Shown here one piece after another: positions 19,195 through 19,461 of a stretch of DNA of 64,000 nt (the stretch's first letter is position 1; every line of letters begins with the position of its first letter). The notes below the pieces were generated by a model. The model searched no databases and was not told where the DNA came from. It saw nothing but the letters and a program-made list of their open reading frames with translations. The stretch is from assembly GCF_988243305.1 (NCBI RefSeq), contig NZ_OZ547136.1. One strand, written 5' to 3'. Position numbers and translations under genes: made by a program.

Positions 19195-19457
19195 TTATTG
19201 CCTGGTTGACGCTTCTGAATCGTAATGCACCACACACTGCCAGTCGCTGCCCTGCTGGCAATATATCGCTTCGGTTTGCCCAGGGATCACCCATTGTATT
19301 TCCTCGCCGGGGGGACAGGTCAGCCAAATGCATAACCCGCAGCCGCCGCGTAAATCACGGGGAATATCGCTGACGCGAAAAGTCATGCCCGCTGCCTGCA
19401 ACGCCTTACGGGTTTGTATGACGCCGACCGTGGAGTGAAATAAAAATAAAAACTCTT

Positions 19458-19461
<4 letters not shown>
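19195..19461 (-). CDS. Small DUF3343-like protein, translationally coupled to yjiL
   Basis: 88-aa ORF whose start region overlaps the yjiL stop (ATGA-type overlap at 19458-19461); cysteine-containing motif CGLCIWLTCPPG; small proteins of this type commonly accompany YjiL/YjiM-like pairs. Confidence 0.6.

Follow-up and report, generated by a model that had tools for sequence, protein, structure and literature searches.

YtiA, a small DUF3343-family protein encoded with the YjiL activase and the YjiM double-cubane reductase: a candidate sulfur or selenium carrier

The stretch of DNA analysed here (the window) comprises 64,000 nucleotides of contig NZ_OZ547136.1 (NCBI RefSeq assembly GCF_988243305.1). 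On its minus strand lie yjiM (20235..21386, RefSeq start), which encodes a double-cubane-cluster anaerobic reductase of the HGD-D family, yjiL (19458..20225, RefSeq coordinates), which encodes an ATP-dependent [4Fe-4S] activase ('archerase') of the BcrAD_BadFG / HgdC type, and a small gene, ytiA (19195..19461). The coding sequence of ytiA starts with ATG, ends with TAA (19195-19197) and specifies 88 amino acids (aa) including the start; the product, taken from the listing of open reading frames (ORFs) and its translation, is MKEFLFLFHSTVGVIQTRKALQAAGMTFRVSDIPRDLRGGCGLCIWLTCPPGEEIQWVIPGQTEAIYCQQGSDWQCVVHYDSEASTRQ. These are exactly the position and length at which the original prediction, made from the sequence by a model, had placed an 88-aa ORF; the strand, which it left unstated, is minus. 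We conclude, with very little doubt, that YtiA is a small cytoplasmic protein of the PF11823 family and that its gene is the third and last of a yjiM-yjiL-ytiA module. It may be added that the longest ORFs of the two partner genes begin upstream of the RefSeq starts, at GTG 21407 (vs 21386) for yjiM and GTG 20231 (vs 20225) for yjiL.

As had been predicted, the start of ytiA overlaps the stop of yjiL. The minus strand reads ...GAGTGAGAAAACGCCGATGAAAGAG... across the junction, and the ATG of ytiA (19461-19459) and the TGA of yjiL (19460-19458) together form a 4-nucleotide (nt) ATGA overlap (19458..19461). A weak and putative Shine-Dalgarno-like purine run, GAGTGAG (19471..19477, minus strand), is situated 10-16 nt upstream of the ytiA ATG, within the 3' end of yjiL. 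In other genera the equivalent place is occupied by AGAGGA, GGGGAAA or CGGAGG, and across loci a purine-rich stretch is found 8-15 nt upstream of the ytiA start. In a scan of 18800-23200, promoters and terminators were no more numerous than expected from shuffled sequence, and no terminator lay between yjiL and ytiA; an Rfam scan of both strands of 15000-24500 returned no match at E (expectation value) up to 0.1. From the geometry of the overlap we infer that translation of ytiA is coupled to that of yjiL. Ribosomes ending at the yjiL stop would most likely restart on the overlapping ytiA ATG, and YtiA would thus be co-produced with YjiL.

When YtiA was compared with Pfam, it matched PF11823 (Se_S_carrier, formerly DUF3343) with 49.2 bits (E 3.6e-13), above the gathering cut-off of 25 bits. 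Residues 4-59 (19285..19452, minus strand) were aligned to profile positions 2-57 of 69. The size of the protein is also typical of the family (88 aa here, 78-89 aa in orthologues), and YtiA shares with the family a single conserved cysteine. The earlier guess of a DUF3343-type protein is borne out by this match. The gene had been supposed to be unannotated in Escherichia coli K-12, which proved to be wrong: in NC_000913.3 (K-12 MG1655) it is ytiA (b4715, YP_009518833.1, 'uncharacterized protein YtiA'), located directly after yjiL. The exact 88-aa allele is present in RefSeq as WP_000657678.1, 'DUF3343 domain-containing protein' (NZ_LR778147.1, identical over the query), and megablast matches are annotated as 'ytiA', 'DUF3343 domain-containing protein' or 'putative Se/S carrier protein'. 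ytiA is not a missed gene; both gene and family are already annotated.

No NCBIfam model was found for YtiA, and a PDB sequence search gave nothing below E 0.05, the matches being chance Sushi-domain and ferredoxin fragments. A phmmer search of 1.84 billion representatives with the single YtiA sequence returned only 43 matches; the YtiA subfamily is therefore narrow. Multi-stretch phmmer matches to proteins of 345-1336 aa (P0144, P0147, P0148, P0152, P0153, P0155), which lie mostly over the Cys-rich C-terminal half, look spurious and were set aside.

By its length alone the ORF would not be significant, since spurious antisense ORFs of 90-240 aa are numerous in the same 7 kb. One explanation of such an ORF is that it is a chance or decaying frame in the 3' flank of yjiL, with no functional protein. 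The spurious ORFs of similar length nearby, the weak constraint on the tail from residue 61 onwards and the interruption of ytiA by a Mu-like prophage in one strain would agree with it. This explanation is refuted by conservation, and we give it practically no weight. ytiA stands above chance because of the PF11823 match, the frame kept intact in about 50 species across saturated synonymous change, and the low rate of nonsynonymous substitution (dN), alone and relative to the synonymous rate (dN/dS), over codons 2-60. Moreover, a DUF3343 domain is fused in frame to an activase in Brachyspira, as described below.

The conservation was examined by a profile-guided scan with one genome per species, which gave 56 loci. 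The loci came from Escherichia, Citrobacter, Klebsiella, Raoultella, Kluyvera, Kosakonia, Phytobacter, Atlantibacter, Trabulsiella, Yokenella, Cedecea, Superficieibacter, Intestinirhabdus and Hafnia, with two more from Fusobacteriales. Within Enterobacterales the trio is patchy, the scan having given no locus from Salmonella, Serratia or Yersinia. By tblastn, the order yjiM-yjiL-ytiA was the same and the spacing essentially fixed in 54 of the 56 species-level loci. About 50 enterobacterial cases were complete, and in these the ytiA frame was intact with a length of 78-89 aa. The start of ytiA read [A/G]TGA at 44 of the 57 loci; TAATG or TGATG accounted for most of the remainder. Conservation of the frame and of the overlap across Enterobacteriaceae, named beforehand as a check on the gene, was thus observed, the overlap being kept nearly throughout.

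Substitution rates were computed against the window ytiA sequence. Synonymous sites are saturated between genera. For codons 2-60, dN was 0.01-0.39 and dN/dS about 0.05-0.2 where computable; for the tail (residues 61 on), dN was 0.36-1.4 and dN/dS 0.1-0.9. Residues 1-60 of YtiA are under strong purifying selection, and the C-terminal tail is poorly constrained. In two loci, those of Citrobacter amalonaticus AUH_CA_2023_1 and Enterobacter sp. EA-1, ytiA is short (54 and 69 codons, respectively) and the yjiM matches are partial or of low identity. The degraded state of both genes could be due to joint pseudogenisation or to assembly errors.

The partner genes were assigned in the same way. YjiL matched PF01869 (BcrAD_BadFG) with E 1e-76 and TIGR00241 (acyl-CoA dehydratase activase) with 364 bits against a cut-off of 125; YjiM matched PF06050 with E 7e-122 and NF040772 with 532 bits against a cut-off of 350. 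The pairing of YjiM with the YjiL activase, as predicted, holds, but the description of YjiM as 'dehydratase-like' does not, RefSeq and NCBIfam classing it as a double-cubane-cluster anaerobic reductase. The published motif CX19CX18-19CX29CX166-170CX32-34CX32C is not matched literally by the window YjiM, whose cysteines (47, 66, 85, 115, 280, 309/311 and 342 in the 390-aa longest-ORF numbering) show similar but shifted spacings. The review of Jeoung et al. 2020 (PMC7317905) includes YjiM among the proteins with the 7-Cys motif; it describes YjiM/YjiL as a class II double-cubane system whose substrate is probably larger, and treats it as two components. The same families are represented in DCCP/DCCP-R of Carboxydothermus hydrogenoformans (Jeoung, Dobbek; PMC7317905, PMC9351452), YjiM being likewise an NF040772 equivalog and YjiL a TIGR00241 activase. 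DCCP/DCCP-R, however, consists of two proteins, whereas the enterobacterial module has a third, a small cysteine protein. With regard to regulation, Myers et al. 2013 (PMC3688515) place yjiML among the operons directly activated by FNR under anaerobiosis. A search of the window with an FNR-box pattern gave 50 matches vs 38 expected, none of them convincing upstream of yjiM, so that the link to FNR is taken entirely from the literature.

The segment CGLCIWLTCPPG (residues 41-52, nt 19306-19341, minus strand; GGCGLCIWLTCPPG when residues 39 and 40 are included) had drawn attention as a cysteine motif. The segment is indeed present in the window YtiA, but its significance as a motif was over-read, only Cys41 being invariant. 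The codon for this residue is at 19339..19341 (minus strand), and it is the sole cysteine kept in all aligned DUF3343 homologues (alignments A2-A5, including members at 22-30% identity). The most conserved stretch of YtiA, D32-I-P-R-x-L-R-G-G-C-G-L43, contains it, and after members at 22-38% identity had been added only F8, P34, C41 and G42 remained invariant. The same cysteine is reported as conserved family-wide by Lin et al. 2015 (PMC5322559).

E. coli YtiA has three cysteines within nine residues (C41-x2-C44-x4-C49), and archerases such as YjiL need a reductant. YtiA might, on these grounds, be a small metal or Fe-S redox protein that donates electrons to YjiL. We consider this quite improbable. 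Although Cys44 reaches about 90% conservation in enterics, Ser takes its place in distant members (L005/L006, P0141, L066 and L067) and in the Brachyspira fusion domain. Cys49, like Cys68 and Cys76, varies even within Enterobacteriaceae, and one conserved cysteine cannot ligate a cluster. Searches of Pfam, NCBIfam and PDB gave no ferredoxin or rubredoxin family match. A CxxC or cluster-binding motif was rejected, only Cys41 being conserved, and because of this invariance of Cys41 alone a single-cysteine carrier is favoured over a metal or cluster site.

A model of YtiA was obtained with AlphaFold2 from a 36-sequence alignment (mean predicted local distance difference test, pLDDT, 88.5; predicted template modelling score, pTM, 0.79). 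The predicted elements, E2-8, H11-23, E28-32, E43-49, H53-57, E63-70 and E73-79 (E, strand; H, helix), would form a ferredoxin-like beta-alpha-beta-beta-alpha-beta-beta fold, with Cys41 at the end of the 33-42 loop.

Beyond the Enterobacteriaceae, proteins 35-38% identical to YtiA are encoded at L005/L006 and L007 among entirely different flanking genes. The gene order there is HGD-D (383 aa), BcrAD_BadFG (256-259 aa) and Se_S_carrier (81-83 aa), and the 4-nt overlap is present in one of these trios. The same trio occurs with different flanks, and it therefore moves as a module. The proposal of a three-gene unit with yjiL and yjiM is upheld by these unrelated flanks, by the 54 of 56 loci mentioned above and by the Brachyspira activase::DUF3343 fusion.

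Distant DUF3343 genes adjoin TusA/YedF-like genes. At one locus (L068, 5498-8039, Fusobacteriales) the DUF3343 gene is found in a molybdenum-cofactor cluster with yqeC, MOSC, moaC, MoCF_biosynth, yqeB and xdhC, and yqeB comes directly after it, without an activase/reductase pair between the two. At a second (L067, 3462-7035, likewise Fusobacteriales), where the cluster also has MoCF_biosynth, the order is MOSC, moaC, DUF3343, activase, reductase (NF040772, 546 bits) and yqeB (TIGR03309, 355 bits). The YqeB proteins of the two loci are 68% identical. Comparison of the two orders therefore indicates insertion of the activase/reductase pair precisely at the junction of DUF3343 with yqeB, the latter a selenium-dependent molybdenum-cofactor gene. 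A Sebaldella locus (L066) was considered as an orphan left after deletion of yjiLM, on account of a 26-aa YjiM match (E 2.5e-4); this was rejected, the locus being better described as of the yqeB/xdhC type, like L068.

We also sampled from the side of the reductase, taking four distant NF040772 proteins with their loci (L073-L076). On a Brachyspira innocens contig (L074), two double-cubane reductase genes and a cysteine-desulfurase-family gene (TIGR01977), for which the second-best model is the selenocysteine lyase SclA, are followed by a fusion gene (6469-7539). The 356-aa fusion product consists of a BcrAD_BadFG activase (residues 4-252), a 28-residue Lys/Asn-rich linker and a Se_S_carrier domain (residues 281-353; E 4.7e-18) with the motif IPSEISAGCGMS. 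Activase::DUF3343 fusions of 356-359 aa were observed in B. innocens, B. murdochii and Brachyspira sp. G79. They are annotated only as 'acyl-CoA dehydratase activase' (e.g. WP_020005626.1, WP_013113146.1). In domain content and order the fusion corresponds to the yjiL-ytiA pair, and it, too, stands next to double-cubane reductase genes. It differs in being one polypeptide, its DUF3343 domain is 21% identical to YtiA and has GCGMS where YtiA has GCGLC, and the locus carries a cysteine-desulfurase/selenocysteine-lyase-family gene, unlike the E. coli locus. Because of this fusion, a physical link between YtiA and the activase is suggested. At the Psychrilyobacter locus (L073, 2607-6687), two double-cubane reductase genes are interleaved with genes for two multi-rhodanese proteins of 447-459 aa, each with three matched rhodanese-domain stretches; neither an activase nor a DUF3343 gene was found within 4 kb.

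In the Brachyspira fusion the DUF3343 domain is joined to the C-terminal end of the activase in the manner of a regulatory tail, which also fits a different role. YtiA could be a non-catalytic accessory subunit, its ACT/PII-like domain stabilising, assembling or allosterically regulating YjiL, e.g. by sensing a small ligand, with no sulfur or selenium being carried. The faster evolution of YtiA compared with YjiL and YjiM and the sufficiency of two proteins for the double-cubane system in vitro (PMC7317905) are in line with such a subunit. It would leave unexplained, however, why a single invariant cysteine, together with Gly42, lies in the most conserved stretch, and why the family has TusA/YedF, selenocysteine-lyase-family, YqeB/YqeC/XdhC and MOSC genes as neighbours. 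We regard an accessory subunit as possible but unlikely.

The cysteine-desulfurase-family gene between the Brachyspira reductase genes and the fusion gene, and the adjacency of the carrier gene to the enzyme genes, would also suit a maturation factor. In that case YtiA would supply the bridging sulfide or selenide through which the [8Fe-9S] cluster of YjiM is assembled from two [4Fe-4S] cubanes, and would not be a partner in turnover. The double cubane does have one additional bridging S (PMC7317905), and a selenium-bridged cluster has been listed as a formal possibility, explaining a correlation with SelD, by Haft 2022 (bioRxiv 10.1101/2022.07.06.499078). The DUF3343 domain is, however, fused to the activase and not to the cluster-bearing enzyme, half of the sampled distant double-cubane loci are without an adjacent DUF3343 gene, and PMC7317905, describing the C. 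hydrogenoformans system as two components, names no carrier. A maturation factor is therefore judged improbable.

The interpretation that we favour, at a rough probability of 45%, is that YtiA carries sulfur or selenium on Cys41 and works in this capacity with the YjiL/YjiM reductase. Cys41, in the stretch DIPRxLRGGCGL, would be loaded with sulfur or selenium, forming a persulfide or perselenide, and YtiA would dock on the YjiL activase. With ATP as the energy source, YjiL would transfer an electron of low potential to the double-cubane cluster of YjiM, and YjiM may then reduce the carrier-bound sulfur or selenium species, or a substrate handed over by YtiA. The variable tail (residues 61-88) would not be essential to this chemistry. 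Sulfur or selenium is implicated because of the neighbouring genes: the selenocysteine-lyase-family gene in Brachyspira, yqeB at L067 and L068, TusA/YedF-like genes and the genes for multi-rhodanese proteins. For PF11823 proteins a sulfur- or selenium-carrying function is putative, its support coming in this way from genomic context.

In the consulted sections of Lin et al. 2015 (PMC5322559), DUF3343 is proposed as a selenium/sulfur trafficking chaperone with one conserved cysteine, and its members are described as small stand-alone proteins of about 80-100 aa. A STRING table in that paper links the DUF3343 protein of Slackia to a 'CoA-substrate-specific enzyme activase' and a '2-hydroxyglutaryl-CoA dehydratase subunit'; in those sections the activase link appears in the table and is not raised in the text. 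The members described there adjoin YedF and selenocysteine-lyase genes, whereas the YtiA subfamily adjoins the activase/double-cubane reductase pair instead. With the TusA/YedF (SirA-like) carriers, whose genes are often direct neighbours of DUF3343 genes, YtiA would have in common a proposed mode of working, in which one reactive cysteine relays sulfur or selenium between enzymes. YtiA does not itself belong to the TusA family: it has no TusA Pfam match, and no sulfur-carrier structure was present among the 60 listed fold matches.

Several observations weigh against a carrier that works with the reductase. YtiA-like genes of 43-47% identity occur without yjiL or yjiM nearby at L072 (6001-6246) and L004 (1046-1297). 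The first is in a sugE-ecnB-efp neighbourhood, the same one in which L005 has the full trio, and the second has, just upstream of the gene, a weak 40-residue match to the N-terminus of YjiL (E 0.005); this suggests that the enzyme genes were lost at these loci and the small gene was retained. The small protein, a regular member of the module in Enterobacterales (54 of 56 loci) and fused to the activase in Brachyspira, does not adjoin the pair in Anaerosalibacter (L075) and the TC1 endosymbiont (L076), which have reductase and activase but no DUF3343 gene within 4 kb (2 of the 4 distant loci); in the endosymbiont the pair adjoins xanthine-dehydrogenase-family genes. Across enterobacterial loci YtiA is the fastest evolving of the three, at 53-88% identity vs 75-96% for YjiL and 85-96% for YjiM. 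No selenium or sulfur-trafficking gene is annotated within 10.8 kb around ytiA, and the YedF/selenocysteine lyase/SelD neighbourhood on which the proposal in PMC5322559 is based was seen in other taxa only and not at E. coli ytiA. A search of the accessible literature for E. coli ytiA (b4715) found nothing, each 'ytiA' paper inspected dealing with the Bacillus L31 paralogue, and no biochemical data on any DUF3343 protein, sulfur or selenium binding included, were found. Finally, the double-cubane system of C. hydrogenoformans works in vitro as two components, with no carrier named (PMC7317905).

A bolder form of the carrier proposal can be put forward, which as a whole we hold to be unlikely. 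YjiM, YjiL and YtiA would constitute a three-part, ATP-driven machine that mobilises selenium or sulfur at very low potential. The Cys41 perselenide or persulfide would be the physiological substrate of the double cubane, and the product would feed SelD and/or the selenium-dependent molybdenum-cofactor pathway (YqeB/YqeC). Such a machine is considered because of the Brachyspira fusion, the insertion at L067 between DUF3343 and yqeB, the selenocysteine-lyase-family and rhodanese neighbours, and the report that double-cubane proteins and SelD occur together almost without exception. According to Haft 2022 (bioRxiv 10.1101/2022.07.06.499078), SelD is present in the assemblies of 955 out of 970 strong NF040772 proteins; DUF3343 is unmentioned there.

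The ytiA allele of the window differs from that of K-12. The K-12 gene occupies the same place, immediately following yjiL and overlapping it by 4 nt, but its protein has 85 aa and the tail ...LTESIYCQQDGVWRCIAHYGVSPR, as against 88 aa and ...QTEAIYCQQGSDWQCVVHYDSEASTRQ in the window. The two proteins are 85% identical overall, residues 1-61 being identical. At the DNA level, identity to K-12 is 100% down to 19278 (codon 62) and about 65% from there to the stop, after which no similarity remains; the divergent 3' segment, codon 62 to stop, occupies 19195..19278 (minus strand). A sharp recombination or island boundary is thus located inside ytiA, at about 19277/19278 (codon 62). A 2.7-kb island between yjiK and ytiA, absent from K-12, borders this breakpoint, and the island has substituted a divergent yet still alignable tail for the 3' end of ytiA. 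Of 5426 complete E. coli genomes, 5385 gave a megablast match to the region 18900-19700; in most of them, K-12 among them, the match is confined to window positions from about 19251 upward. The window-type arrangement was present in 635 of the 5426 genomes, and the 88-aa allele in about 12%.

The island contains a gene for a 720-aa pentapeptide-repeat protein (16722-18884, minus strand), located between yjiK and ytiA, which is present in the 635 genomes with the window-type arrangement. Near its 3' end a tandem repeat (16821-17072, 24 bp x 10.5) encodes EKQASDS(T/I) octapeptides. The genes annotated in the 10.8 kb around ytiA are yjiJ, yjiK, the pentapeptide-repeat gene, yjiL, yjiM, yjiN, mdtM, an iatD pseudogene and an Rpn-family gene. 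The window has a 1746-aa ORF (8923-14163, minus strand) at the position of the inverse autotransporter gene iatD, which in NZ_LR778147.1 carries the annotation 'frameshifted'. In E. coli STEC306 (NZ_CP091016.1; L077, locus 1-3040), the Mu-like prophage mentioned above is inserted in ytiA after about 15 codons and carries Mu transposase and helix-turn-helix (HTH) genes. The ytiA coding sequence is unannotated in this strain, and yjiL and yjiM are intact.

As a gene call, ytiA is of little weight: it is in the K-12 reference annotation and, for this allele, in RefSeq, and the DUF3343 family has been known since at least 2015. The interest lies in the hypothesis that YtiA is a sulfur- or selenium-handling third component of the double-cubane reductase. 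Double-cubane [8Fe-9S] reductases are nitrogenase-like enzymes without a known physiological substrate, and the selenium-dependent molybdenum-cofactor pathway is still without its selenium-delivery steps. The constant co-encoding of YtiA with the activase in Enterobacterales and the Brachyspira fusion make the hypothesis testable in E. coli, and the loci among yqeB, yqeC, xdhC, selenocysteine-lyase-family and rhodanese genes likewise make such an experiment concrete.

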